The position numbers and the translations under genes were made by a program. The notes under the pieces are model-generated. The model ran no database searches. It was not told the origin of the DNA and saw only the letters and a list, made by a program, of their open reading frames with translations. 64,000 nt of DNA from contig CAVXIG010000010.1 of the NCBI GenBank assembly GCA_963761645.1, positions 81,266 through 145,265 of the forward strand, given 5' to 3'. This stretch comes from an uncultured Acidobacteriota bacterium (GTDB lineage: Bacteria > Acidobacteriota > Thermoanaerobaculia > Multivoradales > UBA5704). Shown one piece after another: positions 29,947 to 63,794 of the stretch (within the stretch, counting starts at the first letter, position 1; every line of letters starts with the position of its first letter).

Positions 29947-30046
29947 TGGATCTCGACCGGCTGAATTGAGCGACGTCGGGGACCCGGTCGCCACAGCCGG
30001 CACGCCGTCGACGACCGGAGCGAGAAGGTCGTCGCCACTCTGCTCC

Positions 30047-30528: not shown

Positions 30529-30565
30529 CCCGCTACGAAGCGCCTGGCACCTCGCCCCCTGCGAG
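30529..30565. repeat. 31-bp direct repeat, copy B
   Basis: cccgctacgaaGcgcCtggCacctcgccccc matches copy A. Confidence 0.5.
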
Positions 30566-30688
30566 ACGAAAGCGGTAGAAAAAAGACGGGGCCCTGTGTC
30601 CAGACGCAGGAGCCCCGTCAACCCGCACGGGTTTCCTTCGATTCAGTTGTCAAAGAGCGTTTTGCTCGCCAAAAGTGCTCCGCGAGCC

Positions 30689-31041
30689 TCATTCCCCGCG
30701 CCTCGAGAGGCGTTCCCCGCCTCTCGAGGCCAATCCGCTCCCTCTCGCGCCCCATTCCCTACCGCCGCAACCCGTTCCCTCCAGGGAATCAGGGATGAAG
30801 TCCAAACTTTGCCCCATTCCCCACCCTTCACGCTCCATGGGGACTCCGGAACGCGGCATTCCCCGTGGGGAACGCCGCCCGGGATCCAGGGAACGGGCCG
30901 CCAGACGTCTTCATATCATGCAAGCTCAAGTCAACGTCTCATTCCCTCTGGGGAATGCCCCGCCAGCAGCGGGGAACGCCTCATTCCCCCTTCGCCGCAA
31001 CTCATTCCCCCGAGGGAGCATCAATCACTCTATAGGGAATC
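30689..31041. repeat. dense array (about 12 copies, both orientations) of an 8-mer CATTCCCC / GGGGAATG-like motif, including palindromes
   Basis: cattccccgcg CCTCGAGAGG cgttccccg CCTCTCGAGG ... cattccct ... cgttccct ... cattcccc ... cattccccgtggggaacg ... cattccctctggggaatg ... ggggaacgcctcattccccc ... tagggaatcc; non-coding, lower G+C. Confidence 0.6.
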
Positions 31042-31293
31042 CACCGCAAAGCGAGCCTCTGAAGCGCTGAACGCTCCCGAGTCTCCGCCGCAGGGTCTTG
31101 ACGACATCCTTAACGCGGTGAATACTATTCATATAGCGCTTGTCTGTCCAGGGGCTTCGAGAAGAGGCACTCAGCAGCCCGGCGAAGGGCCTGGGGCGGC
31201 CCTGCGGATCGCCGGGCTCCGCCGTCGAGCCCGCGCTCCGTCGCCGTCCCCGAGGAACGGCCCGAGCTCTTTGACAATCGATGGACCTGCCAG

Positions 31294-31318
31294 GGGAACG
31301 GTAGCGGGGCCGTTCCCC
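31294..31318. other. hairpin ggggaacgg-tagcgggg-ccgttcccc in the 5-prime flank of IS110 transposase (same GGGGAAC/GTTCCCC motif as the array)
   Basis: 9-bp perfect inverted repeat about 170 nt upstream of the transposase start. Confidence 0.4.
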
Positions 31319-31482
31319 TTGGCTCCTACCTTTCCGCGAATGACTCGCGCCACCCTGCCCGAACCGCGTTCACCCACCGGCGAAGGCGGTAGAGATGGGA
31401 TGAGAAGGCCAACCTCCTGAGACGCAGTGCCATACTTTGGCCTGCAAACAGGAGAAAAAGCGCTGGTAGGCGCGAAAGGAGG

Positions 31483-32550
31483 TTGGCCGTGGTTCACTCT
31501 AGCAGAGTCGAGGTGCAGGAGGTGGTGGGGTTGGATGTCGGGGATCGTTCGAGCCAGATCTGTCGGTTGGATCGTCAGACCGGGACCGTCCTTGAGGAGA
31601 GGCGGTTGTCGACGACGACGGCGAGCGTCCAGTGTTATTTCGGAGCTCTGGCGCCTCAGTTGATCGCGCTGGAGAGCGGGACCCACAGCCTGTGGCTGAC
31701 GCGGTTGCTGAAATCTTTGGGTCACGAGGTGATTGTGGCCAATCCGAGCAAGGTCCGGGCGATCTCGTCGAGCCTGCAGAAGACCGACGAGCGCGACGCA
31801 CGGTGCCTGGCGCAATTGGTCCGGGTGGACCCGCAGTTGCTGTCGCCGGTGCATCCGCGCAGCGAGGAATCTCAGCAAGCGATCGCGGTCGTACGGGCTC
31901 GGGAGGGCCTGGTCAAGGCACGGACGATGTTGATCAATCAGATCCGCGGGATGGTGAAGTCGTTCGGCTTCCGTCTGCCGGCGGTCTCCTCGGCGGGGTT
32001 TGCCCGCAAAATTCAGAAAGAAGAGACCCTGCCCTGCTCGCTGAAGACGACGCTGGAGCCGTTACTGCGGGTGATCGCCGAAGTGAGTCAGGAGATCGCC
32101 CGCTTCGACAAAGAGGTCGAGGCCTTGGCCCGACGCTGGCCGGTGACCCAGCGGCTGCGCCAGATCAAGGGGGTGGGAGCGCTGACAGCTCTGGTGTTCG
32201 TGCTGACGTTGGGGGATCCCTACCGCTTCGCCTGCTCACGGGCCGTGGGAGCGTATCTGGGCTTGGTCCCGGGCAATCGCAGCTCGGGCCAGTCGACTCC
32301 GCAAATGCCGATTACCCGACAAGGGGACCGCATGTTAAGACGGCTGCTGGTGCAAGCCTCTCACTACGTCTTGGGACCGTTTGGGCAAGACAGCGACCTG
32401 CGACGATTTGGGCTACGACTGGCTGAGCGCGGGGGCAAGAGCGGTAAGAAACGAGCCGTGGTGGCCGTGGCTCGCAAGCTGGCGGTGGTGCTGCACTGTC
32501 TCTGGGTCAGCGAAACGGACTACCTGCCTCTGCGCGCAACGGCAGCCTAG
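31483..32550 (+). CDS. IS110 family transposase/recombinase
   Basis: 355 aa intact; N-terminal VVGLDVGDRSS (RuvC-like DEDD) and C-terminal ...KGVGALTALVFVLTLGDPYRF...YLGLVPGNRSSGQS... Tnp domain; AAAGGAGG Shine-Dalgarno. Confidence 0.9.
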   Translation: MAVVHSSRVEVQEVVGLDVGDRSSQICRLDRQTGTVLEERRLSTTTASVQCYFGALAPQLIALESGTHSLWLTRLLKSLGHEVIVANPSKVRAISSSLQKTDERDARCLAQLVRVDPQLLSPVHPRSEESQQAIAVVRAREGLVKARTMLINQIRGMVKSFGFRLPAVSSAGFARKIQKEETLPCSLKTTLEPLLRVIAEVSQEIARFDKEVEALARRWPVTQRLRQIKGVGALTALVFVLTLGDPYRFACSRAVGAYLGLVPGNRSSGQSTPQMPITRQGDRMLRRLLVQASHYVLGPFGQDSDLRRFGLRLAERGGKSGKKRAVVAVARKLAVVLHCLWVSETDYLPLRATAA

Positions 32551-32993
32551 AAGAACCAGGCAGGGACGAAAGACAACGAGCAGGTAGGAGAAACGTCCGA
32601 AGAATCGGAGTTGGAGTCTCAACCCCCGTTGTCGGCGACTGCGTTGTGACGTCTTGGCCTTCGAGGCCGACGTAGAGAGTGCAGCGCCGCGGCGGTGGAA
32701 CCCCATAATGCACCGAGCCCAATGGCGGCTCCTTGAGAGTGCGGATGGAAGACTCGGGGACTGATCCAACTCTGGTCTATAAGGAAGGCCGCCATGGCGG
32801 CCTTGCAATTTGGGGCCTTCTCATGGAAGACGTCCCAGACGATGTGCGCTGATCTTTCAAGGCCAACGCCGGCGGGTCGTCTCCGCGGCGGCGATGCCGG
32901 CCTGATCCTCACCGACCCTGGACGTCGCGAATTCCGACGAGGCCCCCCCTCCCCTACGCAGCGGCAGGCACGCCGTGAAGTAAGATCCAGACG

Positions 32994-46332: not shown

Positions 46333-47730
46333 CTATCCTTGCGAAGGAGCCTGCGTGAAGAAGGTCCGGAACGGCCGCCAGTACCGCGCCGCGAGCCCGC
46401 CGGCGGCGAGGGCGGCGGCGATCAGGGAGACGAGGAACCGCTCCCAGCTCCCCGGCGCGAAGAGCCAGGCGGCGAGTGCGAAAAATGGCAACGGAATGAG
46501 ATACAGCAGGGCGAGGTCGCCCAGGAGCGTGCGGAAGCGCGGGCCGAACACGCGGGCGACCTCCCAGGCCATCACGAGATTCCCGATCAGCAGATAGTTC
46601 GCCGCCCCCATCCCCGCGGCGCCCCAGAGCTGGGTGAACCAGATCCCGAAACCCAACAGGGAGACCAGGTTGAGCAGCTCGATCCCGAACCAGGAGCGGT
46701 CCCGGTGTTGTGCCTTGAGCATCTCGCCGCCGAGAATGGTGAACTGATCGAAGAATGGAATGAACGCGATCACCCGCAGGATCGGCACCGCGGCCAGCCA
46801 GTTCTCCCCCATCAGGATCAGGATCACCTTCTCCGCGTTGAAGAACAGAAAATAGCTCGCCACGACCTGGCAGCCCAGGAGCTGGATCGTGCTCAGCCGG
46901 AAGAACTCCAGGAACCGGGGGCGGTCCTCGAGATACTCGACCAGCGTCGGAAAGAGCGCGCGGGGATAGACGATCGTCGCCACCAGGAAGGCGTAACCGT
47001 AGACGCGGGCGTAGAGCCCGACCGTGGCGGTGTCCTGGAACCAGCCGATGATGTAGATGTCGATGTAGTTGACGAGCTGCAGGGTGAGCCAGATGAGGAA
47101 GAGGAACCGGCTGCGGCGGACGAGATCGGAGATCAGGTCCGGCTCGAATCGCAAGGGAATCCTGCCCCAGGCCTTCGCCCAGGAGTAGCCGGCGAGCAGC
47201 GCGGCGCCCAGGAGGTCGGCGATCACCAGGCTCCAGACTCCCCACCCCCGCCAGGCGAGCCCCACCGCGACGGCGGCGATCACGATGCCGCGCCAGATCT
47301 CCGGAGCGATCAGGTTGCCGATCTTCAGCTCCCGTTCGAAGAAGGCGCGAGGCACCACCGCGAGACCGTCCAGCAGGACCCAGACGGCGAAGACCCGCAG
47401 CACCAGCGGCAGCTCGGGGTTGAAGCGGCCGGCGGCCGGCGCCACCGCGATCAGCAGGAGAGTGATCACGACGCCGAGCGTCGCGGTGACGGCGAGGACC
47501 GTGCCGTAGGGGCGGCGCTTGTCGCGCACCAGGTGGTACGGCAGGCCGAGGTCGCGGACGGCGGAGGCGACGGTCACGATCCGCAGGGCGAGCTCGTAAA
47601 GGCCATGCCCTTCGGGGAGGATCAGCCGCGCGAGGGCGATCTTCGCCCCGAAGTTGATCCCCAGGCGGGCGAGCTGGATGGCGTAGGAGGCGAACGTCGA
47701 GCGCAGGATGCGCTGCTCGGTGGTGCCGCC
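46333..47730 (-). CDS. wzx: Wzx-type polysaccharide flippase (MOP superfamily); N-terminus extends upstream of the annotated GTG, true start unresolved
   Basis: ORF 46333..47577 plus in-frame upstream ...RILRSTFASYAIQLARLGINFGAKIALARLILPEGHGLYELALRI... (P-x-x-F/H-G-x-Y-x-LAL signature of MOP N-termini); about 12 TM segments. Confidence 0.65.
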   Translation of the reverse strand, partial: GGTTEQRILRSTFASYAIQLARLGINFGAKIALARLILPEGHGLYELALRIVTVASAVRDLGLPYHLVRDKRRPYGTVLAVTATLGVVITLLLIAVAPAAGRFNPELPLVLRVFAVWVLLDGLAVVPRAFFERELKIGNLIAPEIWRGIVIAAVAVGLAWRGWGVWSLVIADLLGAALLAGYSWAKAWGRIPLRFEPDLISDLVRRSRFLFLIWLTLQLVNYIDIYIIGWFQDTATVGLYARVYGYAFLVATIVYPRALFPTLVEYLEDRPRFLEFFRLSTIQLLGCQVVASYFLFFNAEKVILILMGENWLAAVPILRVIAFIPFFDQFTILGGEMLKAQHRDRSWFGIELLNLVSLLGFGIWFTQLWGAAGMGAANYLLIGNLVMAWEVARVFGPRFRTLLGDLALLYLIPLPFFALAAWLFAPGSWERFLVSLIAAALAAGGLAARYWRPFRTFFTQAPSQG

Positions 47731-47752
47731 GAGGCTCTCCCGCCCGGCACGT

Positions 47753-48892
47753 CTAGAGGAGGTTCGCCCAGCGCGCCCATTTTTCGGTGAGATCCATGCC
47801 GGTCTCGAAATCGAAGGCCGGCCGGTAGCCCAGGAGCCGCTTCGCCTTGTCGATGCGGACGTGGGTCCGGGGGCGGAAGAAGCCGATCATCTCGGGACTC
47901 AGCGGGTGGATCGGCAGCTCGGCGGCGGCGCGGGACGGCCGGCCGCCGCTCCCCAGGCCGGCCTTGATCCGCTGCTGCACGCTCTCCGGCAGCACCGTGC
48001 TCGCCATCTCGCGCAGCCAGACCCCTTCGCGGGTGCGCTCGATCCGCTCGCGGATCGGCTGCTCCGACTTGAGGATGCGGAGCGCCTCCCCCACCGCGTG
48101 CGGCTGCGCCCGCTTCCACTGGCGCCAGAAGGCGAGCGCCTCGGCCTCGGTCATGTCCACCGTCCGCCGCTCCATCCCGAGCATCCGCTCGAAACGGCCG
48201 TAGAGCTCCCGCCAGGTCACCGGCTCCTCGCCGGAGATCAGGAACGCCTCCCCCACCGCCGCGTCCTCGACCGCCGCGAGGAGCATGGCGCTCACCAGGT
48301 CGTCCACATAGACGGCGTTGCCCAGGCCGTCGCCGCCGTTGATCAGGATCTGCCGGCCGGCCTTGAGCGCCCGGATCACCGACTCGGTCCAGACCCCGCC
48401 GTAGGGTCCGTAGACCGCCGTCGGCTGCAGCACGGCGACCGGCAGCCCCGAGGTGAGGGCGATCTGCTCGGCCTCCAGCTTGCTGTCCGAGTAGGCGTTG
48501 CCGAAGCGGCGCCGGGGAGCGGTCTCGTCGAGGTCGCCGTCGGTGGTCTGGCCGTAGACCATCAGCGTGCTCAGGTAGACGATGCGTCCGACGTTGGCGG
48601 CCCGGGACGCCTCCAGCACCCGCCGCGTCCCCTCGCGGTTGATGTAGGCGCGGTGCTTCTGGCTGCCGGAGGTGCCGTAGGCGCAGTGGAAGACGATGTC
48701 GCACCCCTGGATGGCCACCGCGAGATCGGGGGAGCTGGTGATGTCGCCGCGCAGCACGGTCACCGGGAAGCGGGCGAGACGGGCCGCCGCCGCCAGGTTG
48801 CGCACCAGGACGCGCACCTCGGCGCCATGCTCGACGATCAGGCGCTCGACCAGCCGGCCGCCGATGAAGCCGGTGGCGCCGGTGACCAGCAC
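47753..48892 (-). CDS. NAD-dependent epimerase/dehydratase (SDR family) with C-terminal extension
   Basis: 379 aa intact; MLVTGATGFIGGRLVERL; YxxxK. Confidence 0.8.
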   Translation of the reverse strand: MLVTGATGFIGGRLVERLIVEHGAEVRVLVRNLAAAARLARFPVTVLRGDITSSPDLAVAIQGCDIVFHCAYGTSGSQKHRAYINREGTRRVLEASRAANVGRIVYLSTLMVYGQTTDGDLDETAPRRRFGNAYSDSKLEAEQIALTSGLPVAVLQPTAVYGPYGGVWTESVIRALKAGRQILINGGDGLGNAVYVDDLVSAMLLAAVEDAAVGEAFLISGEEPVTWRELYGRFERMLGMERRTVDMTEAEALAFWRQWKRAQPHAVGEALRILKSEQPIRERIERTREGVWLREMASTVLPESVQQRIKAGLGSGGRPSRAAAELPIHPLSPEMIGFFRPRTHVRIDKAKRLLGYRPAFDFETGMDLTEKWARWANLL

Positions 48893-50002: not shown

Positions 50003-50791
50003 TCAGGCGAGATCAAGGATCGTGGGGAGCCGCGCGTGCTCGCGGATGGCCGCCGCCAGCTCCTCGGGAGTCCCGACGTCGCGGTACCGCCCCGCCGGGA
50101 ACTCGACCCCCTCGACGTGGAGCCCGGCCTCGACGGCGGACCGCACCACGGCGCCGATCTGGAATTCCCCTCTCTCCGACGGGTGCGTTCCTCACGGCCT
50201 CATGGAGGAATCGGGTGAAGACCGGGCTCCAGACCGCGATCAGCCAGTTGTAGCGCAGCTCCGTGCTCTCCGGCCGCACCTCGACGCGGACCACCCGGCC
50301 GTCGTCTCCAAGCTCGACCATGTCGGTGGAGCGGAACCGCTCGGTCGGGAAGAGCCCGAGGACGAGGTCGGCCCCCGTCGCCGCCTGCCGCGCGATCAGG
50401 GGAGCGTAGGCGTCGGCCGGCTCGAAGATCACGTCCGGAAAGCCAAGGGCCACGATCGACTCCTCGACGAACGGAAACGCCCGGTCGAGCGTCTCCGGCA
50501 CGCTCCGCGATCCCGGGATGGAGAGATAGGCGAGCGCCACGTCCGCGATCTCCCCCGTCCCGAAATAGCGGGGAACGTCCTGCTTGGATTCATGGAGCAC
50601 CATGAAGACCCGCCGCACCCCGGCCGTCCGGAACCGCTCCAGCAGATAATGCCCTGCCACCTTGGGAGCCGGCCCGCGAGGAGTCTCCCGGAAGCCGATC
50701 GGCAGCAGCTCCTTGCTGCACGGCAGCGGCCCCAGCCGCTCGGCCCGGCCGGCGGCGGGGATGAGGCCGACGAGGGGGAGAAGTTCCACAG
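50003..50791 (-). CDS. sugar-phosphate nucleotidyltransferase (frameshift around 50175)
   Basis: GTG start; ...LIPAAGRAERLGPLPCSKELLPIG... (G-x-G-T-R-L-like loop) ...FMVLHESKQD...; C-terminus recovered in alternate frame ...EFQIGAVVRSAVEAGLHVEGVEFPAGRYRDVGTPEELAAAIREHARL. Confidence 0.6.
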
Positions 50792-51377
50792 CCCGGAGAC
50801 GCGGCGGAAATGGTCGAGATTGCGCTAGAGTCCGTGGACAAGCAGTGCCGCTATCAGAATGTCGATCGCCGTTCGCACCCTGCTTTTTGAGAAGCCATAG
50901 ATCTCGGCGGCTTCGTCGATCATCTCCCGGATGTCTGGGGCATTCCTCTCGAACGCGAGGCGCCAAAGGCATCTTTCGCCTTAGCCGGAGGATTCGTAGC
51001 GATAATGCTGGAATTGCCTGTCAGCCGGTCTGCGCACCTTTGCACGTTGAAATCACGTTTTAAATCTCCGAGAGGATGTCGATATCGAAGATAGCCATCA
51101 TCCGGCGTTTGCGGGAGAATCGGCTTCGTCCATGGGATCGTCTCCACCTCGGCGATCTCAATCGGCCCTAGACTTCATCCAAGCGGCGAGCTCGGCTCAG
51201 CGTCTCTGCCGCCGAGCTCCTGCCTGAACGGAAAACTGATGTCGGACAAGAGGTCTTGTAGCGGTTCGAGGACACCGTCCTCGAGCAGCTCAAATACGCA
51301 AGTACCGTTCGGTTCATTCTTGACCTTGGCCTTCTCATATCCCCTCAAAGCTAGCACCCGGAGTAAGATCCCGCCCC

Positions 51378-52233
51378 ATGGCCGAGCCCGCCGCCTACGA
51401 GTACCTCACCCGCAAGGAGGCCGACATGGCCTTCAAGCGGCGGGCGTGGACGATCTTCGAGTGGCTGGGACCGACGGACGGCCAGACGATCCTCGACTGC
51501 GGGTGCGGCCGCGGGTTCTACCTCAAGATGCTGCGCCACCTGGGGTCCGCCCGGCTCTTCGGGGTCGACCTGGAGCTCCCCTATCTCCGCAAGGCGCGCC
51601 GCAACACGGCCCACCTGCCTGCGATCCTGGTGGGCAACGCCTCGATCTACGATCTCCCCTTCCCGGACGAGACCTTCGACGCCGTCATCCTCTCCGAGAT
51701 CCTGGAGCACGTCGACCGCGACGTGGACGCCCTCCGCGAGATCCGCCGCGTGCTCAAGCCGGGCGGGCTGGCCCTCCTCACCGTGCCCCACGCGAACTAC
51801 CCCTTCTGGTGGGACCCGATCAACAAGACCCTGGAGACGCTCTTCCATACCCACATCGGCCGGGGACCGCTCGCCGGCATCTGGGCCTTCCACGTCCGCC
51901 TCTACACGCCGGAGAAGTTGCGGCAGGCGGCGCTCGCGGCGGGCTTCGAGGTCGAGGAGGAGCGCTCCTTCACCCATCACGCCTTCCCGTTCGTCCACAA
52001 CCTGCTCTACGGGCTGGGCAAACCGCTCCTCGAATCCGGGCATCTTCGGCCGGGGCCTCGCCGACGTGGCGGACCGCGGCAGCTTCGATCAGGATGGCGG
52101 CAGCCCGCTCCACCCCGTCAACCTGGGGCTCAAGCTGCTGAACCGGATCGACCGCGGGAACCGGATGAACGAGCCGCCGGGGCGATCGACGGTGAATCTG
52201 TGTTTGAAGGCGCGGAAGCCCGCTATAAGATAG
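51378..52233 (+). CDS. class I SAM-dependent methyltransferase (frameshift around 52035)
   Basis: ILDCGCGRGFYLKML motif I; LKPGGLALLTVP; C-terminus ...IFGRGLADVADRGSFDQDGGSPLHPVNLGLKLLNRIDRGN... recovered in alternate frame ending TAG 52231-52233. Confidence 0.65.
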
Positions 52234-53001: not shown

Positions 53002-54212
53002 CTACTCCACCAGAGCTAATGGAGTCGCGGCCCTCTCCTCCGCCGGCACCGCATACATCCGGAACAGCTCCTCGTACCGGCCAATCGTCACCTCGGCCGA
53101 AAAGTGCCGCTCGATCTCCTCGACCGGCCGGACGAACCGGACGCGGTCGCTCAGGACCTCGACGATCCCCTCGCCCAGGGCCCGCCAGTCGTCGCGCGGC
53201 ACGATCTTTCCCATGCCGGTGAGTTGCACGGGGACCCGGCCGCCCGGGAGTGTCGGTCATCACGACCGGGGTGCCGCAGAGCATGGCCTCGACCTGCACG
53301 AGGGCGAAGCACTCGGTGTCGCTCGGCAGGGCGAGGACGTCGCAGGCGGCATAGAAGTTCGCCATCTCCTGGGTCGAGGGAACAATTCCTAAGGAAGACG
53401 AGCTGATCCCGGAAGCGGTCCACCAGCGGCTGGTGGCGCGGCCAGTAGGACTCATAGGGGATCTCGTGCTGGCCGGCGAAGACGATCCGCGCGCCGGGGA
53501 AGGTGCGGTTGACCACCTCCAGCGAGCGGATCAGCAGGTCCGGCCGCTTCTCCTCGACGAAACGGCCGGCGAAACGATGATCGGGCCGCCGCCGGGGGCC
53601 CAGGCCTGGCGAAGCTCGCGCACTTTCTCGCATCCGGCACCGGCACGTCCACGAACGGCGGGATGACCACCACCTTCTCCAGGTAGGGGCTCAGGTACTC
53701 CGAATGCCGGGCGTAGTCCAGCGTGTGGCAGACGAGCGCCGGAGCCACGTTCGCCAGGGTGCGGTAGAAGGCGAACATCACCGTCGTGATGATCCGGTTG
53801 AGCGCCCCCGCGGGCAGCACCAGGTCGCCGTGATGGGTGACGACGACCCGCTTGCCCGCCGCCCGGGCGGCGAGACCGATCAGGGCCGTCTCCAGCATCG
53901 GCGTGTGGACGCTCACCACGTCGTGCTCCCGGATCAGCCGGGCGAGCGCCCTGGGATACCCGGGCAGGATCATGCCGCGGCTGATGCCGAAGGGGAGCGG
54001 CCAGAGGCGGATCACCCGGACGCCGTTCTCGATCGACTCGCCGAGCGGCGTGTCCGCGGAGTGGCGGGCGCAGAGGACAGTGACCCGGTGGCCGCGCGCC
54101 GCCAGCCCCTCGGCAAGCTGCCGCACGTAGAGCGTCAGGCCCGTCCGGTGCGGCACGTAATAGAGCAGGCAGATCAGGATGCTCGGGCTGACGTCTCGAT
54201 CGTGCTGGGCAT
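53002..54212 (-). CDS. family 4 (GT-B) glycosyltransferase (about 4 frameshifts)
   Basis: Pieces in ORFs 53452..54339 (...ILICLLYYVPHRTGLTLYVRQLAEGLAARGHRVTVL...), 53151..53633 (...FAGRFVEEKRPDLLIRSLEVV...), 52823..53455 (...EMANFYAACDVLALPSDTECFALVQVEAMLCGTPVVMTDTPG... E-x7-E region) and 53002..53229. Confidence 0.65.
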
Positions 54213-54339
54213 GATAAAAGTTATTGCAAGAAACCCGAGGAGCCCGCGGAGGGGGGGGAGCGCTTGAAGAGGAACGCGGCATGCTACCATCCGCCGCGAA
54301 TTCCGGGCAATCGCCGCCAACCGCACCCCTACCCGACAC

Positions 54340-56292
54340 CCATGGTCCACCCCGACTCCCAAGCCGAGCCGAAGCGCTGGATCGGGATCGCCCTCCTCGG
54401 GCTGCTCCTCGTCAGCTTCGCCCTGCGGACCTGGGACGCCAGCCAGGGGCTCAACGCCAGCCGGTACTATGACGAGCGCTTCCCGCTGAAGAACGTCTCC
54501 GGGCTGCTCCTGCACGGCGAGCTCCGCCCCCGGCACGCCTTTTATCTGAGCCTCTCCTACCTGCCCCAGACGGCCGTGCTGGCCGCCAGCCAGTGGCTCT
54601 TCGAAGTCACCCGCTACGAGCCGTTCTCGATCTACAGCGCGACGAGCGACGGCTACTCCCCCACCGCCTACTGGCTCTGCCGGATGATCAACGTGATCTA
54701 CGGGACGCTGAGCCTCTGGCTCCTCTTCCTGATCGGCAGGCGCATCTACTCATCCGGAGTGGGGCTGCTCGCGGCGGCCATCCTGGCGGCGTTCGGCCGC
54801 CACGTGCTGAGCTCGTCGGAGTTCAAGCCGGACATCCTCGTCATCTTCCTGGTGACGCTGACCTTCCTCTGGACCCTCGGCGCCGCCTTCCGCCCCTCGC
54901 TCCGCCGCTTCCTGCTGGTGGGCGTCGGGGTCGGGCTCGGCGTCTCGGCCAAGTACACGGGGATCGCGGGGGCGATCCCGATCACCGCCGCGGTCCTCGC
55001 GGAAGGGCGCCGCGACCGCCGGCAGTGGCTCTGGCTGCTGCTCGCGGGCGTCGCCTCGGTGGTCACCTTCGTGGCGCTCAACCCGTTCCTCGACGTGGTG
55101 TTCGAGTTCATCCCCAAGCTGGTCAACGGCTACGCGGCCAAGGGGGTCGAGGAGCGGAGCAATCACTGGGTGGTGTTCGAGCGGCAGGTGCGGTTCCTGA
55201 TCGAGCAACACGGCCCGATCGTCACCGCGTTCGTGGCCCTCGGCGTTATCTGGCTCGCCGGCGGGCTCCTGTGGAGGATCTTCCGTCCAGCTCTCCGGGG
55301 TTTCTCATGAAGACGGCCGGGAGCGGCGCCTCGGCTCGATCCTCGTCCTCAGCCTGCTCCTCGGCTACTCCGCCCTGCACGCGCTGGGGATGACGCTGTT
55401 CCGCGGCCAGAACTACCTGCCGGTCGTCCCCTTCTCCTCGCTGGTGGCCGCCTGGGCGATGGTGGAGCTCTGGCGAGTCCTGGCGGCCCGCCTCCCCTGG
55501 CTGGCGTGGCGGCCGGTCGCGGCGCTGGCCGGGCTGGCGGTGGGCGCCGCCCTCCTCGCGCAGCAGGGGACGATCGTCTACACCCGCGTGGTGCCCACCA
55601 CGTTCGAGCGGACGAACGACGCGCTGCTCGCCGAGCTCGATCCGGTCGGCCTGCGCCACGTGGTCTACGAGCGGGGGATGGGCGCCTTCGACGCCGGCGG
55701 CAAGCCCCGCCGGCCGCTGCTGACCCCGGTGCCCCGGCTCACCGCTCTCGCGCCGGACTTCCTCGACCGGGCGGACATCGAGATCTTCCCGCAGCGGCGG
55801 CTCCAGGGACCGGACGCCGATTTCTACCGCGCCCGCGTCGCCCGCCTGCGCAAGAAACAGGTCGAGATCGTCGGCGACCTCTGGTTCCGCAGGCGCGGCG
55901 AGCCGCTGGTGATCCTCCGCCACCCCTGGACGCTCGCCCGGGACCCCGTCGATCTCCTGGTCAGGCGTCCGGAGGGGGACCCGCCTTATCTGGTGGGCCG
56001 CCTGCCCGCCGGGATCGCCCGGCCGGGAGAGGCCGTCTCGCTGCTGCTCTGGATCCCCCGCGACTCGGGGGACCGCGAAGCGTACGAGCTGCGGCTCGAT
56101 CCGGGCGGCCAGCCGGTGGCGGTGTTCGACACCGGCCGCCGCCTCAACCGCCTGTTCCGGACCAGCCCGCGCTTCGCGCTGACCGGGACCGAGCTGCGGG
56201 TGCGGGTCCCCTCGACCCCGGTCGACCGCCCGCGGGGCTTCGGCCTGGAGATCTACCCGTGGCGGCCGGGGCCGGCTCCGGCACGGCCTTGA
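54340..56292 (+). CDS. GT-C-fold membrane glycosyltransferase (family 39/ArnT/PMT-like) with C-terminal soluble domain (frameshift around 55300)
   Basis: ORF 54264..55310 (about 10 TM helices; ...RYYDERFPL... first-loop acidic motif) continues in ORF 55390..56292 (...LGMTLFRGQNYLPVVPFSSLVAAWAM...). Confidence 0.6.
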
Positions 56293-57566
56293 AGGCGTCG
56301 AAGCCGCGCCGGCTCTCCGCCGCCGGCCTGCTCGGGGGGAGCGCCCTCCTCCTCGTCACGCTCAATCTGGCGAGCGCCCTCCACTTCGCCTTCCATGTCG
56401 CCATGGCGCGCCTCCTCGGCCCCGCCGGCTATGGGGCGATCGCGGCGCTGCTCGCCATTCTCTACGTGCTGAACGTCTTCGCCGAGTCGGTGGCTACCGT
56501 GCTCGCCCGCTACACCGCGCACGAGCCCGATCCGGGACGGCTGCACGACCTCCTCCGCCGGGGGCTGCGCAAGGGGGGCCGGGCGACGCTGGCGCTGGCC
56601 GCGCTCTACCTGACGGCGGCGGTGCCGCTCGGGCGCTGGCTGCGCATCCCCTATCCGCTGATGGCCCTGTTCGGCCTGTCGCTGGCCGGCGTCGGGCTGC
56701 TGCCGGTGCACCGCGGGGCGCTCCAGGGGTGGAAGCGCTTCGGCGGTCTCGGGCTCAACATGATCTGGGAGGTGCTGGCCAAGCTCGCGATCGGCATCGG
56801 GCTGGTCTGGATCGGTTTCGGAGAGTACGGCGCGGTGGCCGGAATCGCCCTCAGCCTCTGCTTCGCCTTCGCCGTCTCCTATCTCCCGTTGCGCGACGTC
56901 TACCGCACTCCCGCGACGCCGGCCGAGGCGCCGGACATCTACCGCTACAGCCTGCCGGTGTTCGCGGTGACGGCCACGGTGATGGGCTTCTACAGCCTCG
57001 ACGTCCTGCTCGCGCGGGCGTTCTTCCCCGATGCGGTGGCGGGTGGGTACGCGGTGGCCTCGTTCCTCGGCAAGTCGATCCTGCTCGGCACGGCGGCGGT
57101 CACCAAGGCGGCGTTCCCGCACTCGGCGGCAGCGGCGCGGAGCGGCCGGTCGCGGCACGTCCTCGCCGGCACCCTGGGGCTGCTCGCCCTCTGCGTGACG
57201 CCGGTGATCGCCGTTTTCGGACTCTTTCCGGAGCCGCTGATGCGGGCGGTGGGCGGCCGGGGCTACCAGGGGGCGGCGGAGCTCGTGCTGCCGCTGGGGA
57301 TCGCGATGGCGCTGATGTCGTTCAGCAACGCCTTCCTGCTCTACCGGCTCTCCACCGGCCGGCTGCGCTTCTGGGGGGTGCTTTCCTTGCTGATTCCCAT
57401 CGAGGCGGCGGCTTTGACGCTGTTTCGTGGCTCGACGGTGGAATTCGCCTGGACGGTGGCGGCGATGAACGGGGTGTTCCTGCTGGTCGCTGCGGGGGTC
57501 GCCGTCCTCAGTTCCCCCCCGCCACATACCCCAGCGCCTTCAGATCTTCCTCTTCCTTCGGCGTGA
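56289..57566 (+). CDS. second MOP-superfamily flippase-like membrane protein
   Basis: TTG start in TTGA overlap with previous stop; ...FHVAMARLLGPAGYGAIAALLAILYVL... N-terminal MOP signature; about 12 TM helices; real part of ORF 55506..57566. Confidence 0.55.
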   Translation: MKASKPRRLSAAGLLGGSALLLVTLNLASALHFAFHVAMARLLGPAGYGAIAALLAILYVLNVFAESVATVLARYTAHEPDPGRLHDLLRRGLRKGGRATLALAALYLTAAVPLGRWLRIPYPLMALFGLSLAGVGLLPVHRGALQGWKRFGGLGLNMIWEVLAKLAIGIGLVWIGFGEYGAVAGIALSLCFAFAVSYLPLRDVYRTPATPAEAPDIYRYSLPVFAVTATVMGFYSLDVLLARAFFPDAVAGGYAVASFLGKSILLGTAAVTKAAFPHSAAAARSGRSRHVLAGTLGLLALCVTPVIAVFGLFPEPLMRAVGGRGYQGAAELVLPLGIAMALMSFSNAFLLYRLSTGRLRFWGVLSLLIPIEAAALTLFRGSTVEFAWTVAAMNGVFLLVAAGVAVLSSPPPHTPAPSDLPLPSA

Positions 57567-58962
57567 GCTTGGGCTGGTGGCCCGTGGAACGGCCCGGCGG
57601 CACCTCGGAGCCGTTGGCGGCCAGCCAGGCGTTCTTGAGCCGCCGGGCCATGCGGTTGACCTCGCGCGGATCGTTCACCGGCTGGACGCTCCCTCCACTC
57701 CAGCGCACCAGGGTGAGCCGCGGCGGATCGCCGCGCCGGCCGGAGAGCGGCAGAACGCTCCCGAACGCCTTCTCCAGCCGGCCGAAGATCGCCTGCACCG
57801 GCTCGGCCAGCGGCGGCTCGGGGGTGCCGCCGATCCCCGCGTAGCGCGCCCGGTAGTAGTCCGGCTCGGGAGGCGCGAAACGGCTCTCCCAGAGGAGCTG
57901 GAGGTCGCCGTCGACCAGCGAGAAGCGGTTGACGCCGTCGCCCAGGTAGAGCTCGGAGAGCGCTCCCTTGTCGAACGGCTGGAAGAGGCTGGGCGCCACG
58001 CCGGGCTCCGGCTTGCCGCCGGCGGCCTCGATCAGCGTCGGCGCCACCCGCACGTTGGCGACGTGGCTGGCCGGCATCGCGAGCTTGCGCTGGAAGCCCG
58101 CCGGCAGCTTGACCACCAGCGGCACCTCGACCAGCACGTGCCCGAGATTGCCGCCGTGGGCGATCTGGCCGTTCTCGCCGAACTCCTCGCCATGGTCGGA
58201 GGTGACGACGAGGAGGGTCTTGTCCCACTGGCCGCTCTTTTTCAGCGCGGCCAGCAGCCGGGAGAGCACCTGGTCGGCGTAGGCGGCGTTGAGCCGGTAC
58301 ATGGCCCGGAAGACCCGCTCCTGATCGGCCGGCAGCTTCACCGCCGGGTCGTAGTAGGGCTCGAGGTCGAGCGGGCGCACCTGCTTCGGGAGATCGGGCG
58401 GGATCTCGTCGAGCCGGTCGAGGAGAAAGTCGCGGCGGACGTACGGCGCGTGCGGCGCCAGGATGTGGATCCAGACGAAGTCCCGCCCCCCTTTGAGCTC
58501 CTCCAGGTAGCGCTCGGCCCGCTTCCCTTCTTTCAGATAGCGGAAGTCGTCGAACCCCTGGGAGTAGCCGAACTGCGACTCCAGCCAGTGGTTGGAGCGG
58601 AAGGCGGCGGTGCGGTACCCCGCGTGCTTCAGCGCCTCCGGGAGGGTGACGAAGCGGTCGTCGAGCACCGAGCGGTCGCTCGCCCAGCTCCGCGACCGCC
58701 AGGGCTGGAAGCCGGTGAAGATCGAGGCCATCGACGGCACCGTCCAGCTCGACGGCGAGATCGCCCGGCCGGCCCAGGTCGCCTCCCGGGCGAAACCGGA
58801 GAGCGCTGGCATCACTTTGGCAGGTCCGCCGAGGGCGCCGACGGTGTCCGCCCGCAGGGCGTCGATGGTGATCAGCACGATCGGGCCGCGATGGACCGGC
58901 ACCTCGGGAGCCCGGGAGCAGCCGAGAGCCAGGGCGCAGAGCGCGATCGTAGAGAGTAGGCG
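57508..58962 (-). CDS. sulfatase-like hydrolase/transferase lipoprotein (alkaline-phosphatase superfamily; no CxPxR)
   Basis: Lipobox ...ALALGCS; ...IVLITIDALRADTVG...; site corresponding to sulfatase CSPSRASLLTG reads WTVPSMASIFTG; ...VVTSDHGEEFGENGQIAHGGNLGHVLVEVPLVVKLP. Confidence 0.65.
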   Translation of the reverse strand, partial: RLLSTIALCALALGCSRAPEVPVHRGPIVLITIDALRADTVGALGGPAKVMPALSGFAREATWAGRAISPSSWTVPSMASIFTGFQPWRSRSWASDRSVLDDRFVTLPEALKHAGYRTAAFRSNHWLESQFGYSQGFDDFRYLKEGKRAERYLEELKGGRDFVWIHILAPHAPYVRRDFLLDRLDEIPPDLPKQVRPLDLEPYYDPAVKLPADQERVFRAMYRLNAAYADQVLSRLLAALKKSGQWDKTLLVVTSDHGEEFGENGQIAHGGNLGHVLVEVPLVVKLPAGFQRKLAMPASHVANVRVAPTLIEAAGGKPEPGVAPSLFQPFDKGALSELYLGDGVNRFSLVDGDLQLLWESRFAPPEPDYYRARYAGIGGTPEPPLAEPVQAIFGRLEKAFGSVLPLSGRRGDPPRLTLVRWSGGSVQPVNDPREVNRMARRLKNAWLAANGSEVPPGRSTGHQPKLTPKEEEDLKALGYVAGGN

Positions 58963-59037
58963 GTAGCAGTTTCTTGAGGACAAGACGAAATTTCTCCACT
59001 CCGGCGAGGGTTCCGGAACTGCGGTAGGATACCTTAC

Positions 59038-60077
59038 GTGCGTACACCACCCGTCCGCTTGTTCAGGGGGATCTTCACCGGCTTCCTCCTTTGCTCCGCC
59101 GTCGCCGCCTTCGGCCAGGACGAGCCTGTCCAGGCGTTTCGTACCCTCAGCGGTCGATGAGGCCCTGACGCTGCTCGCCGCGGCGGGCGGCGCCCGGATC
59201 GAGCTGCCGGGAGGGCGCGCGGTGCAGGTGGCCCTGCCGGAGCGCGCCGAGCTCACCGCCCTGGCGGCGATCGACGGCGGCTGGGTGGCCGCCGGAACCG
59301 TGCGGGACGCGAGCGGCCGCCAGCGTCTGTTCCTGCTGCGCGGCAACGACCGCGCCTCCCGGCCGCTGGCCGAGCCCCCCGGGCAGGAGGGGCGGCAGCG
59401 GCGCGGACGCGGTGTTCCTGGTGGACGGCGGCCGGCTCGCCGGCCTCGCCTGGCTCGAAGGGGAGGACGACCGCTCCCTCTCCGTGCGCTCCGCCCTCTG
59501 GAATGGCCAGCGCTGGCAGGCCCCCGAGCGCGTCTCCTTCCCGGGTCCGGGGAGCCAGGTCGCGCTCGCCGGCGCCGTGCTGACCGACGGCTCCTGGCTG
59601 CTCGCCTGGAGCGCCTTCGACGGCGAGGACGACGAGATCGTCTGGGCCCGCCGCGCGGGCAACGCCTGGCAGCCGGTGAAGCGCCTCTCGCCCGGCAACT
59701 CCGTGCCCGACATCACCCCCGCTCTCACCGCCACCGCGGACGGCGGCGCCCTGATCGCCTGGAACCACTTCGACGGCAAGAGCTACGAGCTGCGGATGGC
59801 CCGCTTCAAGGGCGAAGGCTGGCGCGACGAGCGCGCGGCCGCTCCCGCCGGCTCGCTCTTCCCGAAGTTCCTCGGCGGCTCGCGCCTGCTCTACGTCAAC
59901 GCCGTGCCCCACGGCTGGACGGTGCTCGACCTCGACGCCGCGGGGCGCGTGAAGGCGCGGGCGACGGTCGCCTCCCCGCTGGACCGCCCCGTGGTCAGCT
60001 TCGAGGGGAGCACGGTCCGGATGCGCTGGCCCGCCGAGAAGCGGCAGGCTTCGGCTTCCCTGGAAAGAATGCCGTGA
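59038..60077 (+). CDS. secreted hypothetical protein with repeated LxAW..FDG units (frameshifts around 59145 and 59400)
   Basis: GTG start; signal peptide MRTPPVRLFRGIFTGFLLCSAVAAFGQ; ...LLAWSAFDGEDDEIVWARRAGNAWQ...LIAWNHFDGKSYELRMARFKGEGW... Confidence 0.45.
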
Positions 60078-61257
60078 GATTGCACCGCCTCGCGTCCGCC
60101 GCCGCCGTCCTCCTGGGCTCCGTGGTGGGGTTGCCCCTCGCCGCGCAGACGACCGGGAAGACCTATATCGCCTTCGGCGACAGCATCACCGCCGGGATCG
60201 GGGACGATACGACGCGGACCGAAACCGGCTATCCGCCGCGCCTGCAGGTCGCTCCTCCAGGCGGCCGGCGTGAACGCCACGGTCAAGAACTTCGGAGTCC
60301 CCGGCGAGAAGACCCCGATGGGGATCGCCCGCATCGACTGCGGTCCTCGCCACGGGCAAGCTCGGCGACGTGCTGATCCTGATGGAGGGGACGAACAACA
60401 TCAACCGGGACATCTCCCTCGAGACCACCATCGGCGATCTCGATACGATGGCCGGCAAAGCCGAAGCGCTCGGCATGGGCGTGATCCACGCCACGGTCAT
60501 CCCCCGCCCGCCCGATGCCAAGGTCGACGGCGACAACCTGCTGACCGAGCAGCTCAACGGGCGCATCCGCAACCTCGCGGGCTTCCGCGGACGGCGCGAG
60601 GCCGACCCCAACGAGGTCTTCCGCAACCTGCCGAACCTCTTCGGCAGCTTCTACAGCAAGGACCCGGACGACCACGTGGGCCACCCCAACGCCGCGGGGT
60701 ACGACATCCTCGCGCGGCTCTTCTTCAACGTCATCCAGGGGATCGACACCGTCTCCCCCGTCCCCGGCACCCTCAGCCCGGTGAACGGCGCCACCAAGGT
60801 CAAGCCCGACGAGACGATCCTGGTGAACGTCTGGGACTTCGGCCTCGGCATCGACCTCGCGAACACCTTCCTGCTGGTCAACGGCCAGCAGGTCGCGGCC
60901 GTTCCGCAGGGGACGGCGATGCATGCCACGCTCACCTATCAGTCCCCGGCTCCCCTCAGCGGCACCGTGAACGTATCGCTCCGGTCGCGCGACCTCGCCA
61001 CGCCGCCCAACACGATCGATCGCGTGATCTCCCGCTTCACGATCCAGGGGGCGGCCAACGCTCTCCAGGGGGACATCAATCAGGATGGCCGGGTGGACGG
61101 CGCCGACCTCATCACCTTCGGCCTCCACTTCGGCTCCCTGCGCGGCGACACCCACTACAACGCCACGGCCGATTTCAACGACGACGGCCGGATCGACGGC
61201 CTCGACCTCGCGATCCTGTCGGCGAACTTCGGGCAGTCGAAGCCGGCGGGGACGTAA
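60075..61257 (+). CDS. SGNH/GDSL hydrolase with C-terminal dockerin-like repeats (frameshifts around 60245 and 60365)
   Basis: GTG start in GTGA overlap; signal peptide; block I YIAFGDSITAG; ...ILMEGTNNI... (block III); ...HPNAAGY... (block V His); C-terminal DINQDGRVDGADLITF...DFNDDGRIDGLDLAILSANFG Ca-binding dockerin repeats. Confidence 0.65.
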
Positions 61258-61269
61258 TCCTGCCCGCCC

Positions 61270-62737
61270 CTAGTTCACGTACCCGAGCGCCTTCAGAGCG
61301 CGCTCCGTCTCCCCGTTCACCTCTTCCTCCTCGCCGCTGGCGCGGGCCTTCCGCATCCATTCGACCAGGACGCGCTTCAGCCGGCGCACCTCGTCGGTAT
61401 GGGTGGCGGCGAGGTTGTTCGTCTCCAGGGGGTCCGCCTTCAGATCGTAGAGCTCGAAGCCGCCGGTGGGCGAGTCGGCGGCGCGGGAGTGCTTGCCGCC
61501 CGAGTTGAAGACCAGCTTCCAGGTGCCCTCCTGGACGCTGTGGTAGAGGTTCGGATGGTGCCCGGCCTCCGAGAACGCCTGGCGGAAGGGATCGGCCCCC
61601 GTCGCCGGGTCCGATCCCTCGTCCCTGATCAGCGGCCAGAGGCTGTGCCCCTCGATGCCGGGGATCTGGCGGTCCGGCGCGATGGCGTCCCGCAGGGTCG
61701 GATAGAGGTCGACCAGCTCCACCGGCCGGTCGATCCGTTTCCGCCGGCCGTCACAGGCCGTTCATCACGAAGAACAGCGGCACGTGGGCCGTGGTGTTGT
61801 ACGGCAGCGGCCCGTGCTCGAACCAGGAGTTGTGCTCCCCCAGCTCCTCGCCATGGTCGGCGGCGAAGACGATCAGGCTGTCCTCGAGCAGCCCGAGCGA
61901 GCGCATCTCGTCGAGCAGCTTCTGGATGTGCTGATCGGCCACCAGGACGTTGGCGTCGTACTGGGCCACGTAGTACTTGAGATCGGTGTGCCCCTCGAGG
62001 GTGTACCCCTTGGCGACGATCCGCGCCGGGATCGGACGGTCGCCGGGGCCCTGGAAGACGGCGTCGCCCAGGAACGGGTTCTTCTCCCCCTCCGGCAGGA
62101 TGTAGGGCGCGTGCGGGTCCGAGTAGTGGATCCAGGCGAAGAGGCGGTCCGCCTTGGCGTACTTGCGGAGCAGCGGCAGGGCGAGCTCGTTCACCTTGGG
62201 AGCGCTCGCCAGCGGCCGGAACCGCTTGGGCTCGTCCGGAAACTCGCCGCCCCCCCAGGTCTCCTGGAACTCGTCGAAGCCGGTGTTCCAGCCGAGATTG
62301 GCCCCGAGCACGGCGTTCGAGACCACGCCGAAGGTCTGGTAGCCCTGCTCCTTGAAGAGCTCCGGCAGCGTCAGGTACGGGTCCGGGATGCGCAGGGCCG
62401 CCCGGTGGGTGAGGCCGGTGGTGTGCGGATAGAGCCCGGTGAACATCGCCGCGAACGAGCTCCCCGTCTTCGGCCACTGGGTGATCGCGTGATCGAAGGT
62501 CACCCCGGTCGCCGCCAGCTTCTGGAGATTCGGCGTGGTGGCGCGCGGATACCCGTACAGGCTCATGTGATCGGCCCGCAGGGTATCCACCGTGATGAAG
62601 AACACCCGCCGGGGCGCGTGAAAGCCGGCGGCCGGCGCGGCGGCGGCGCTCTCCGCCCCCTCCTTGCCACGGCAGCCGGCGAGCGCGAAAGAAGGACGAG
62701 GAGAATCCAGAGAGTTTTCGTGGACTTGAAGGGCAAG
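61270..62737 (-). CDS. sulfatase-like hydrolase/transferase lipoprotein 2 (no CxPxR; frameshifts around 61740 and 62690)
   Basis: ATG about 62737 MTLPFKSTKTLWILLVLL...FALAGC lipobox (after frame switch) ...VFFITVDTLRADHMSLYGY...KTGSSFAAMFTG...; C-terminal part in ORF 61270..61722. Confidence 0.65.
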
Positions 62738-62813
62738 GTCATCTCCAGCGGACGGGAGATGCTACTACAGGGCCGAGCCGTCCGCCTCAACGTGCCACAA
62801 TGTCCCGCTCGCC

Positions 62814-63794
62814 ATGCCCCCCCTCCGCCTCCACCCCACCGATCCCCGCTACTTCGCGGACGCCGAAGGCCGCCGCGTCGTCCTCGCCGGCTCCCATCAC
62901 TGGGACAGCCTGATCGACAACGCCGAGCGCCCCGGCGGCTTCGACTTCGAGCGCTACCTGGACCGTCTCGCCGGCTGGGGGCACAACTTCATCCGCCTCT
63001 GGACCCACGAGGCCTGGACGCATGACCTCCACCCCCGCGTCTACGAACGGACCGGCCCCGGCCGCGCCCTCGACGGCCGCCCGCGCTTCGACCTCACCCG
63101 CTTCGATCCCGAGTACTTCGACCGCCTCCGCGGCCGGGTGGTCCGCGCCGGCGAACGGGGCTTCCATGTCTCGGTGATGCTCTTCAACGGCTGGTCGATC
63201 CACAACAAGGGCGAAGGCAACCCCTGGGACCGCCACCCCTTCAACCGCGAGAACAACATCCACCGCATCGACGGCGATCCCGACGCCCGCGGCGAGGGCT
63301 CGGACGTCCACACCCTGCGAGTCCCGGAGATCACCCGCCTCCAGGAGGCTTACGTCGAAAAGGTTGTGGAGACCGTGGGAGACCTCGATCACGTTCTCTG
63401 GGAGATCTCGAACGAGAGCCCGAGGGAGTCGGTCCCCTGGCAATATCATCTGATCGATTCTCTGAAAGTGATCGATTCCAACCGTCACCCCATCGGCATG
63501 ACGGCCACCTTCCCCGGCAACCGCAACGAAGACCTCTTCAAGAGCCCCGCCGACTGGATCTCCCCCGGCAACAAGGGGGGCTGGCGCCGCAATCCTCCCC
63601 CGGCGGATGGGAGGAAAGTGGTGATCGTGGATACCGATCACCTCTGGGGGATCGGAGGGGACGCGGACTGGGTGCGGCGGATGTTCCGGCTCGGGTATCA
63701 GGTGCTTTACATGGACCCGCTGGATGAGGATCCGGTGCGGGAGGGGGCGCGGCGGGCCATGGGAGAGGCCTTGCGAAGCCTAAGCGCGGTTTGA
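62814..63794 (+). CDS. glycoside hydrolase, GH5-like (DUF4038/GH140-like) family
   Basis: 326 aa intact; ...HNFIRLWTHEAW...VMLFNGWS...LWEISNES (NE acid/base-like motif)...VVIVDTDHLWG... Confidence 0.55.
   Translation: MPPLRLHPTDPRYFADAEGRRVVLAGSHHWDSLIDNAERPGGFDFERYLDRLAGWGHNFIRLWTHEAWTHDLHPRVYERTGPGRALDGRPRFDLTRFDPEYFDRLRGRVVRAGERGFHVSVMLFNGWSIHNKGEGNPWDRHPFNRENNIHRIDGDPDARGEGSDVHTLRVPEITRLQEAYVEKVVETVGDLDHVLWEISNESPRESVPWQYHLIDSLKVIDSNRHPIGMTATFPGNRNEDLFKSPADWISPGNKGGWRRNPPPADGRKVVIVDTDHLWGIGGDADWVRRMFRLGYQVLYMDPLDEDPVREGARRAMGEALRSLSAV

Follow-up and report, generated by a model that had tools for sequence, protein, structure and literature searches.

The stretch of DNA considered here (the window) comprises 64,000 nucleotides of contig CAVXIG010000010.1 from an uncultured Acidobacteriota bacterium and has a G+C content of about 69%. 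Two genes on its minus strand, here called A and B, encode lipoproteins of the sulfatase family in which a threonine takes the place of the residue that sulfatases convert to formylglycine. They flank a gene for an SGNH hydrolase with a dockerin within a glycan locus, an arrangement already recognised by a sequence-only reading of the window and confirmed here. Both proteins keep the body of a sulfatase, and their conserved residues point to an active site of the kind found in phosphoethanolamine transferases. The features of the two genes are as follows.

57508-58983, minus strand: gene A, a lipoprotein of 491 amino acids with sulfatase/alkaline-phosphatase fold (PF00884) and a predicted threonine nucleophile; intact in the window.
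58918-58983, minus strand: signal peptide and lipobox LALGC of A, read from the sequence; the codon of Cys22 is at 58918-58920.
58846-58872, minus strand: ITIDALRAD block of A, residues 38-46; Asp41 (58861-58863) is a predicted metal ligand.
58729-58746, minus strand: W80-T81-V82-P83-S84-M85 of A, at the position of the formylglycine motif (C/S-x-P-x-R); Thr81 (58741-58743) is the predicted nucleophile.
58156-58197, minus strand: D263-H264-G-E266...H276 of A, predicted metal ligands with the second-site His and Glu; invariant in both families.
61270-62742, minus strand: gene B, a second Thr-type lipoprotein of sulfatase fold (PF00884), about 490 amino acids once repaired; at least two frameshifts in the window.
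62672-62683, minus strand: lipobox LAGC of B, read from the sequence; Cys24 is invariant in orthologs.
62570-62593, minus strand: TVDTLRAD of B (within ITVDTLRAD), read from the sequence.
62453-62470, minus strand: K92-T93-G94-S95-S96-F97 of B, at the position of the formylglycine motif; Thr93 is the predicted nucleophile.
61844-61861, minus strand: ADHGEE of B (A-D296-H297-G-E-E), the metal-ligand block; H310, which aligns with H276 of A, lies further downstream.

Gene A starts with a TTG codon at 58983, with GGAG upstream, and its stop codon lies at 57508. The N-terminus of the product reads M/L-SSRNCYRLLSTIALCALALGC, and SSWTVPSMASIFTG spans residues 78-91. Gene B, as read from the sequence, also contains WPKTGSSFAAMFTG. 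The lipoboxes (A-L-G-C in A and L-A-G-C in B) fit the pattern [LVI][ASTVI][GAS]C and their cysteine is conserved in orthologs, Cys22 being kept in at least 90% of those of A. These lipoboxes, the ITIDALRAD and ITVDTLRAD blocks and the WTVPSM and KTGSSF motifs all read as the sequence-only reading had given them. The AlphaFold model of A has a predicted local distance difference test score (pLDDT) of 84.4 and a predicted template-modelling score of 0.88.

In overall architecture, A and B are closest to formylglycine sulfatases and phosphonate monoester hydrolases (PMH). The Sulfatase family PF00884 matches A with an E-value of 3.4e-36 and the repaired B with 4.1e-45, and the alkaline-phosphatase-superfamily core is accompanied by a sulfatase C-terminal subdomain (PF00884, a weak SGSH_C match in B, and Foldseek). 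The best sequence and fold matches include BT1918 (7oz8), choline sulfatase (6fny), RlPMH (2vqr) and E. coli AslA, and the top Foldseek matches had template-modelling scores of 0.55-0.6. A profile search of the PDB gave a Bacteroides S1 sulfatase as best match (7e-38), phmmer matches reached down to 1e-27, and no close Thr-type structure was found in the profile search. Like these enzymes, A and B are secreted or periplasmic proteins of about 480-500 amino acids with an N-terminal Asp, a D-H/N-G block and a C-terminal subdomain, and A also has x-P-S-x after the nucleophile. In contrast to them, A and B have threonine as nucleophile, Met or Phe for the signature Arg, Ala or Thr for the second N-terminal Asp and no sulfate-binding Lys, and identity to them is low (16-20%). 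No NCBIfam model reached its cut-off; the best, an arylsulfatase model, scored 82 / 147 bits against a cut-off of 481.

The threonine-nucleophile hydrolases of PF01663, namely the nucleotide pyrophosphatase/phosphodiesterases (NPP), PafA and PhnA, belong to the same superfamily and are likewise soluble or anchored. The D-x-x-R-x-D N-terminal block of A and B resembles that of NPP. The PF01663 matches of A and B are above the cut-off of 23 bits (39.6 / 39.2 bits) but short: they cover 33-66 residues, with the best stretches at profile positions 189-221 (A) and 2-64 (B) of 342, and the scores for PF00884 are 3-4 times higher. No NPP structure occurred among the best 60 sequence matches or the top 50 fold matches listed.

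Several alignments place the threonine of A and B on the Cys or Ser that becomes formylglycine, and the Met of A or the Phe of B on the Arg of the motif. With phmmer, T-V-P-S-M of A aligned with S-T-P-A-R of 7oz8, and T-G-S-S-F of B aligned with x-G-P-S-R (4upi), S-G-P-S-R (5g2v) and C-G-S-S-R (4upl). With hhalign, a joint profile of A and B placed T81 on the Ser, P83 on the Pro and M85 on the Arg of E. coli AslA. Because both methods put the threonine at the formylglycine position, the substituted region is homologous to the formylglycine loop. The C/S-x-P/A-x-R signature of S1 sulfatases (SulfAtlas) is absent from A and B, and so are residues with which these enzymes bind sulfate. The Lys of the G-K-x-H motif is Ser in both proteins when compared with AslA and 7oz8, whereas its His is present in A (H132) and Ala in B. 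The distal sulfate-binding Lys is replaced by H276 in A and H310 in B, in a distal loop where the alignment is approximate.

Threonine is not convertible to formylglycine (PMC5066984). The SulfAtlas authors counted Thr in place of Cys/Ser in 30 of 59 PF00884 seed sequences, and they do not regard such proteins as sulfatases without experimental evidence (PMC5066984). No domain of a formylglycine-generating enzyme (FGE) or radical-SAM maturase (anSME) was detected among the window's open reading frames scanned, and no AslB-like match either. The earlier claim that A and B cannot be formylglycine-dependent sulfatases is therefore upheld by the missing C/S-x-P-x-R motif, by the loss of the motif Arg and sulfate-binding Lys, and by the invariance of these changes in orthologs.

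This invariance was assessed in alignments of 49 orthologs of A and 50 of B (about 58-97% identity), in which mean column identity was 60% and 68%, respectively. More than 120 relatives were listed for each protein; those named by taxon all belong to Thermoanaerobaculia or Acidobacteriota, and one ortholog of A (P0001) is 97% identical. T81, P83 and M85 are invariant among the orthologs of A (T81 and M85 in 49 of 49), as are K92, T93, G94, S96 and F97 among those of B (50 of 50). Since the Thr and the Met or Phe are invariant in orthologs, the substitution is a selected one and no error. D296, H297, E299, H304 and H310 of B are each present in 50 of 50 orthologs. When both families are aligned jointly, the invariant columns are D41, T81, N131, H173, H178, D263, H264, E266, E270 and H276, and D41, L43, R44 and A45 do not vary in either family.

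These residues were compared with the phosphoethanolamine transferase EptA of E. coli K-12, with numbering tied to Neisseria meningitidis EptA through PDB 5fgn. The joint profile matched the E. coli enzyme in hhalign with a probability of 95.5% and an E-value of 1.6e-8, the match covering the EptA catalytic domain only (residues 238-499). In this alignment, D41 falls on the first zinc ligand, a Glu (E244 in E. coli, E240 in N. meningitidis), and T81 on the second Thr of C-G-T-A-T (T280 in N. meningitidis). H173 and H178 fall on the two histidines of H-x-x-x-x-H, and D263, H264 and E266 on D-H-G-E, where D263 and H264 equal D452 and H453 of the N. meningitidis enzyme. H276 falls on the His 12 residues further (H465 in N. 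meningitidis), and in A, too, the distal His follows D-H at a distance of 12 residues. We take E240, T280, D452, H453 and H465 of N. meningitidis EptA to be its catalytic and zinc-binding residues.

The same set can be traced to the phosphoethanolamine transferase MCR-1, whose first zinc site consists of E246, T285, D465 and H466 and whose second site contains H395 and H478, with E468 bonded to H478 (PMC5216409). The same authors point out that choline sulfatase differs at the positions of the second site (PMC5216409). D263, H264, E266 and H276 of A correspond to MCR-1 D465, H466, E468 and H478. The threonine nucleophile and the first-zinc ligand set of the EptA/MCR type (Glu/Asp, Asp, His) are thus found, invariant, in A and B, and H178, H276 and E266, also invariant in both families, match the second-site His pair and Glu (MCR-1 H395, H478 and E468). 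Judged from these alignments, A and B carry the transferase-type residue set and not the sulfatase-type set. They share the nucleophile, the first-zinc ligands, the second-site His pair and the Glu with EptA, MCR-1 and EptC, and also with LtaS, OpgB and BcsG. As far as the sequences reach, the earlier suggestion of a Thr nucleophile as in LtaS/EptA-like enzymes is supported by the EptA match and the invariant residues.

The resemblance ends outside the active site. Unlike EptA, MCR-1 and EptC, A and B have a lipoprotein anchor in place of the membrane domain, an extra sulfatase-like C-terminal subdomain and Asp rather than Glu as first ligand, and their overall similarity to the EptA type is weaker than to sulfatases. 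No N-terminal multi-pass membrane domain was found in A or B: only the signal peptide of about 22 residues with its lipobox precedes the catalytic domain. The curated NCBIfam models of EptA, MCR and CptA scored at most 45 bits, against cut-offs of 400-1250.

A and B are not isolated cases. The joint profile was searched against 1.84 billion cluster representatives (50% identity), which yielded 159,958 matches at E ≤1e-3, and the best 150 were analysed. Each of these scores more than 270 bits, whereas the best solved sulfatase reaches 134 bits. The nucleophile column of the 150 complete domains shows Thr 115 times and Ser 6 times, but no Cys. In the 77 of the 150 that keep the full D-T-H-H-D-H-E-H set, position +4 is occupied by F (25), M (18), H (14), V, I, L or T and in no case by Arg. 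Motifs seen repeatedly are W-T-V-P-S-M (A-type), W-P-K-T-G-x-S-F (B-type), W-T-L-P-S-H and W-T-K-P-x-x. By profile similarity and motif, A and B belong to a large clade. Among species-representative genomes, orthologs of A (49-76% identity) were confined to Thermoanaerobaculia, Holophagales and Acidobacteria bins, and relatives at 26-36% identity occurred in Myxococcota, Planctomycetota, Aminicenantes, Gemmatimonadota and others.

We found no characterised member and no curated family for this clade, and the literature yielded the SulfAtlas remark and unrelated NPP papers. The general point that PF00884 contains Thr-type proteins is already known, since the SulfAtlas authors noted it (PMC5066984). 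A soluble, sulfatase-bodied Thr clade was not found described in the literature.

Two further observations concern members of the clade. About 50 of the nearest A-like representatives (within P0249-P0387) keep the A-P-S-S-x-x-x-P-x-x-A-S-L-x-T-G framework but no longer have the metal ligands and, in many cases, the Thr; from their sequences, they are likely catalytically dead paralogs. About 30 of the 150 top representatives (for example P0248, P0252, P0264, P0283 and P0299) are proteins of about 800-1550 amino acids with at least two tandem Thr-type domains, some of them clearly B-like. Fusions of an A-like with a B-like domain were sought among them, but the partner domain was not clearly A-like. 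The tandem proteins support no more than a frequent cooperation of these domains in pairs, which may also hold for A and B.

The genes around A and B provide the context in which a substrate can be sought. The relevant neighbours in the window are listed below.

60074-61257, plus strand: SGNH/GDSL hydrolase with C-terminal dockerin (Pfam Lipase_GDSL_2 and Dockerin_1), in three frames in the window (2, 3, 1), against an intact ortholog of 392 amino acids.
59038-60074, plus strand: secreted beta-propeller protein between A and the SGNH gene, in three frames in the window; the ortholog has 344 amino acids (L001:8912-9946, minus).
62814-63794, plus strand: candidate GH140 (apiosidase)-like glycosidase (PF13204 at 28 bits, just over the cut-off).
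54273-56262, plus strand: PMT_2 (GT-C) glycosyltransferase (Pfam), with one frameshift.
56259-57560, plus strand: Wzx-like flippase (Pfam, tblastn), intact.

The 344-amino-acid protein belongs to no Pfam family that we could detect. Its AlphaFold model (pLDDT 86.6) has weak Foldseek matches to fucose/propeller lectins, GH145 and a PL42 lyase, with template-modelling (TM) scores of 0.5-0.6. The order GH140-like / B / SGNH-dockerin / beta-propeller / A forms a five-gene module which is present in at least six genomes, with A orthologs 58-90% identical, and the GH140-like gene is conserved beside B in six loci. In the window the module adjoins genes for polysaccharide assembly. L001 is a related, intact locus on a 7.05 Mb contig. 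It reads GH140-like, a 588-amino-acid protein of no assigned function, B, SGNH-dockerin, the 344-amino-acid protein, A and the Wzx-like flippase, followed by PMT_2 (GT-C), GT4, a methyltransferase, a further unassigned protein of 272 amino acids, a GFO/IDH/MocA oxidoreductase, an epimerase and a second flippase. The gene set of the window is that of L001 without the 588-amino-acid gene. The core of the module recurs in L003/L007, L004, L005, L006, L008 (partial) and L009, where the surroundings vary; the 344-amino-acid gene was not detected in the L004 and L009 loci.

Some of these loci carry additional genes. In L003, a Holophagales contig of 8.4 Mb, a DDE transposase lies between B and the SGNH gene, and A is followed in tandem by a second A paralog whose active site is intact (L003:6227-7636 and L003:11371-12753). 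A second SGNH protein, with an AlgX-like domain, is encoded just past the GH140-like gene (L003:2012-3214 and L004:4490-5668). The AlgX family is that to which the alginate O-acetylation protein belongs, and the AlgX-like neighbours add to the flavour of polysaccharide modification in this region.

Taking the above together, the explanation we favour, at a probability of roughly 0.55, is that A and B are lipid-anchored extracytoplasmic enzymes with the body of a formylglycine sulfatase and a different active site, performing Thr-based phosphate-ester hydrolysis on a polysaccharide. In such a scheme they would not be sulfatases. A divalent metal, probably zinc, coordinated by D41, D263 and H264 in A and by D53, D296 and H297 in B, would activate the threonine (T81 in A, T93 in B). 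The threonine would attack a phosphate ester to give a covalent phospho-threonine intermediate, while H178, H276 and E266 of A would hold the phosphoryl group or a second metal. The group would then be released by water or by an acceptor hydroxyl. Most likely they would hydrolyse phosphodiester or phosphomonoester decorations of a polysaccharide, in partnership with the esterase, glycosidase-like and beta-propeller proteins of the conserved module. Trimming is favoured over decoration because the module partners appear to be of hydrolase or glycan-binding type. Family membership, the lost sulfatase signature, the residue equivalences, their invariance and the gene order come from the comparisons above; we infer the metal, the phosphate chemistry, the choice of hydrolase over transferase and the glycan substrate.

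Several points weigh against this explanation. Among its 50 best PDB matches, Foldseek paired the A model exclusively with formylglycine sulfatases, choline sulfatases and PMH (TM scores of 0.5-0.6, 14-20% identity), and the hhalign probability is higher for AslA (98.2%) than for EptA (95.5%). AlphaFold models the loop bearing H276 in A poorly, residues 276-284 having pLDDT values below 50. The substrate is guessed from the neighbouring genes, and in one genome the module sits apart from most assembly genes. Lastly, B is frameshifted in the window and does not form one open frame, as its three-frame translations and the DNA sequence show; tblastn matches are split over frames -1 and -2. The AslA and Foldseek results also bear on the prediction of the sequence-only reading that phylogeny would cluster A and B with Thr phosphotransferases. 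It was not borne out, because the AslA match exceeds that of EptA and the top 50 Foldseek matches are all sulfatases or PMH; body and fold are nearer to the latter, and the nearest relatives of A and B form a separate set of Thr-type proteins.

The strongest alternative, which we consider possible though unlikely, is that A and B are decorating transferases. They would move phosphoethanolamine or phosphoglycerol from a membrane lipid via the threonine to the polysaccharide made by the adjacent Wzx, GT-C and GT4 genes. Parallels exist in BcsG, which acts on cellulose, OpgB on periplasmic glucans and EptA on lipid A. The active-site set agrees with phosphoethanolamine transferases at all compared positions, including the second-site His pair and Glu; the lipid anchor would keep the enzymes at the membrane surface; and flippase, GT-C and GT4 genes are adjacent in the window, L001, L005 and L009. 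However, to our knowledge every characterised transferase of the EptA/LtaS/OpgB/BcsG type has a membrane domain, used to reach the lipid donor, and A and B have no multi-pass domain of this kind, which corrects the sequence-only reading. The low scores with the curated EptA, MCR and CptA models, a body and C-terminal subdomain resembling those of hydrolases, and the hydrolase-type module partners also speak against transfer.

The frameshifts of B raise another question, namely whether this gene is a decaying pseudogene and A alone is functional in this organism. Neither these shifts nor the gene at 59038-60074 had been noticed in the sequence-only reading. The first shift, near 62690, separates the frame of the lipobox from that of the ATG and the first 18 signal-peptide codons; it is mended by one extra T in a T run, which gives MTLPFKSTKTLWILLVLLFALAGC. 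The second lies near 61740-61760. Such damage would suit a pseudogene, but apart from the shifts the repaired B shows 90% full-length identity to an intact ortholog of 495 amino acids (P0121), with no premature stops within the frames. Moreover, the neighbours are equally affected, as a tblastn comparison of the window genes with the proteins of L001 demonstrates. Genes split in the window are B, SGNH-dockerin (three frames), the gene between it and A (three frames), PMT_2, the methyltransferase and the 272-amino-acid gene, whereas gene A and the flippase are intact. The E1 dehydrogenase and the AMP-binding enzyme elsewhere in the window are likewise split, the GT4 region (53029-54210) contains 4 in-frame stops, and the C-terminus of the apiosidase-like gene is disrupted near 63655. 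Overall, about 10 shifts fall within 14 kb, over unrelated genes. The stretches affected in the whole window are the following.

13723-16262, 26796-27989, 50021-52224, 53029-56262 and 59038-63794: disrupted genes, with frameshifts or in-frame stops relative to intact orthologs.

This distribution suggests an indel-rich assembly and not gene decay. As the frameshifts are spread over unrelated neighbours, B is probably no pseudogene, and we regard decay of B alone as improbable. A homopolymer-error origin of the shifts was tried as an explanation and would fit the T run in the signal peptide of B; however, other single-base indels lie outside homopolymers, and the nucleotide alignment with L001 is noisy at 88% identity. 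The active-site substitutions themselves are amino-acid replacements and no effect of frame.

Still less probable is that A and B are true sulfatases which use Thr for formylglycine and need no maturation enzyme. By sequence and fold, the solved proteins nearest to them are indeed sulfatases, B keeps the sulfatase C-terminal subdomain and a D-L-x-x-D-P-x-E-x-x-N-L stretch, and the module resembles glycan-degrading loci in which sulfatases accompany glycosidases and esterases. Yet the sulfate-binding Arg and both Lys of S1 enzymes are missing, together with the His in B, the replacements are hydrophobic (Met, Phe), and the His pair and Glu that A and B have in addition belong to phosphoryl-transfer enzymes. 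We know of no natural sulfatase that is Thr-based. The SulfAtlas caution on Thr-containing PF00884 proteins applies here as well (PMC5066984). A bolder version extends this chemistry to the whole clade, as FGE-free sulfatases acting through a metal-activated Thr, or, in milder form, makes A, B and the clade a new class of glycan phosphodiesterases that strip phosphate-linked decorations from bacterial polysaccharides; we rate it as more doubtful again. Thr sulfatases, if they proved true, would break the rule by which sulfate esters are hydrolysed in this fold through formylglycine alone.

Finally, it is very unlikely that A and B are non-catalytic binding or regulatory proteins that preserve just the fold, in the way suggested for the YejM/PbgA periplasmic domain: although they show weak similarity to YejM and the roughly 50 nearest A-like representatives without metal ligands and nucleophile indicate that pseudoenzymes arise in the clade, all eight active-site residues are invariant in A and B across orthologs of 58-97% identity, the pattern of a working site, and those degenerate relatives show how relaxed selection looks.

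These findings have practical consequences. Public records label genes of the A and B type 'sulfatase' or 'arylsulfatase A-like'. For this clade, conclusions on sulfur cycling or glycan degradation that rest on these names would be mistaken, whether in Acidobacteriota or in other environmental phyla. The clade is a natural case of nucleophile exchange in the alkaline phosphatase superfamily, in which a sulfatase body is combined with a phosphoethanolamine-transferase-like active site. The five-gene module is a concrete place to seek the substrate. Textbook knowledge would stay unchanged unless the activity proves unexpected.

Some minor observations concern the rest of the locus and window. 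Two Wzx-like flippases are encoded in the locus, at 46333-47886 (minus strand) and, as listed above, at 56259-57560 (plus strand), together with three methyltransferases and two epimerase/dehydratases. This gene content hints at two or more glycans, or at a single one that is heavily modified. No RNA families were found in the window with Rfam. The stretch 28700-32900, of lower G+C content (0.64-0.66), probably represents the insertion of a mobile element; it encodes an IS110-family transposase (31483-32550, plus strand) along with a methyltransferase (28716-29453, minus strand).

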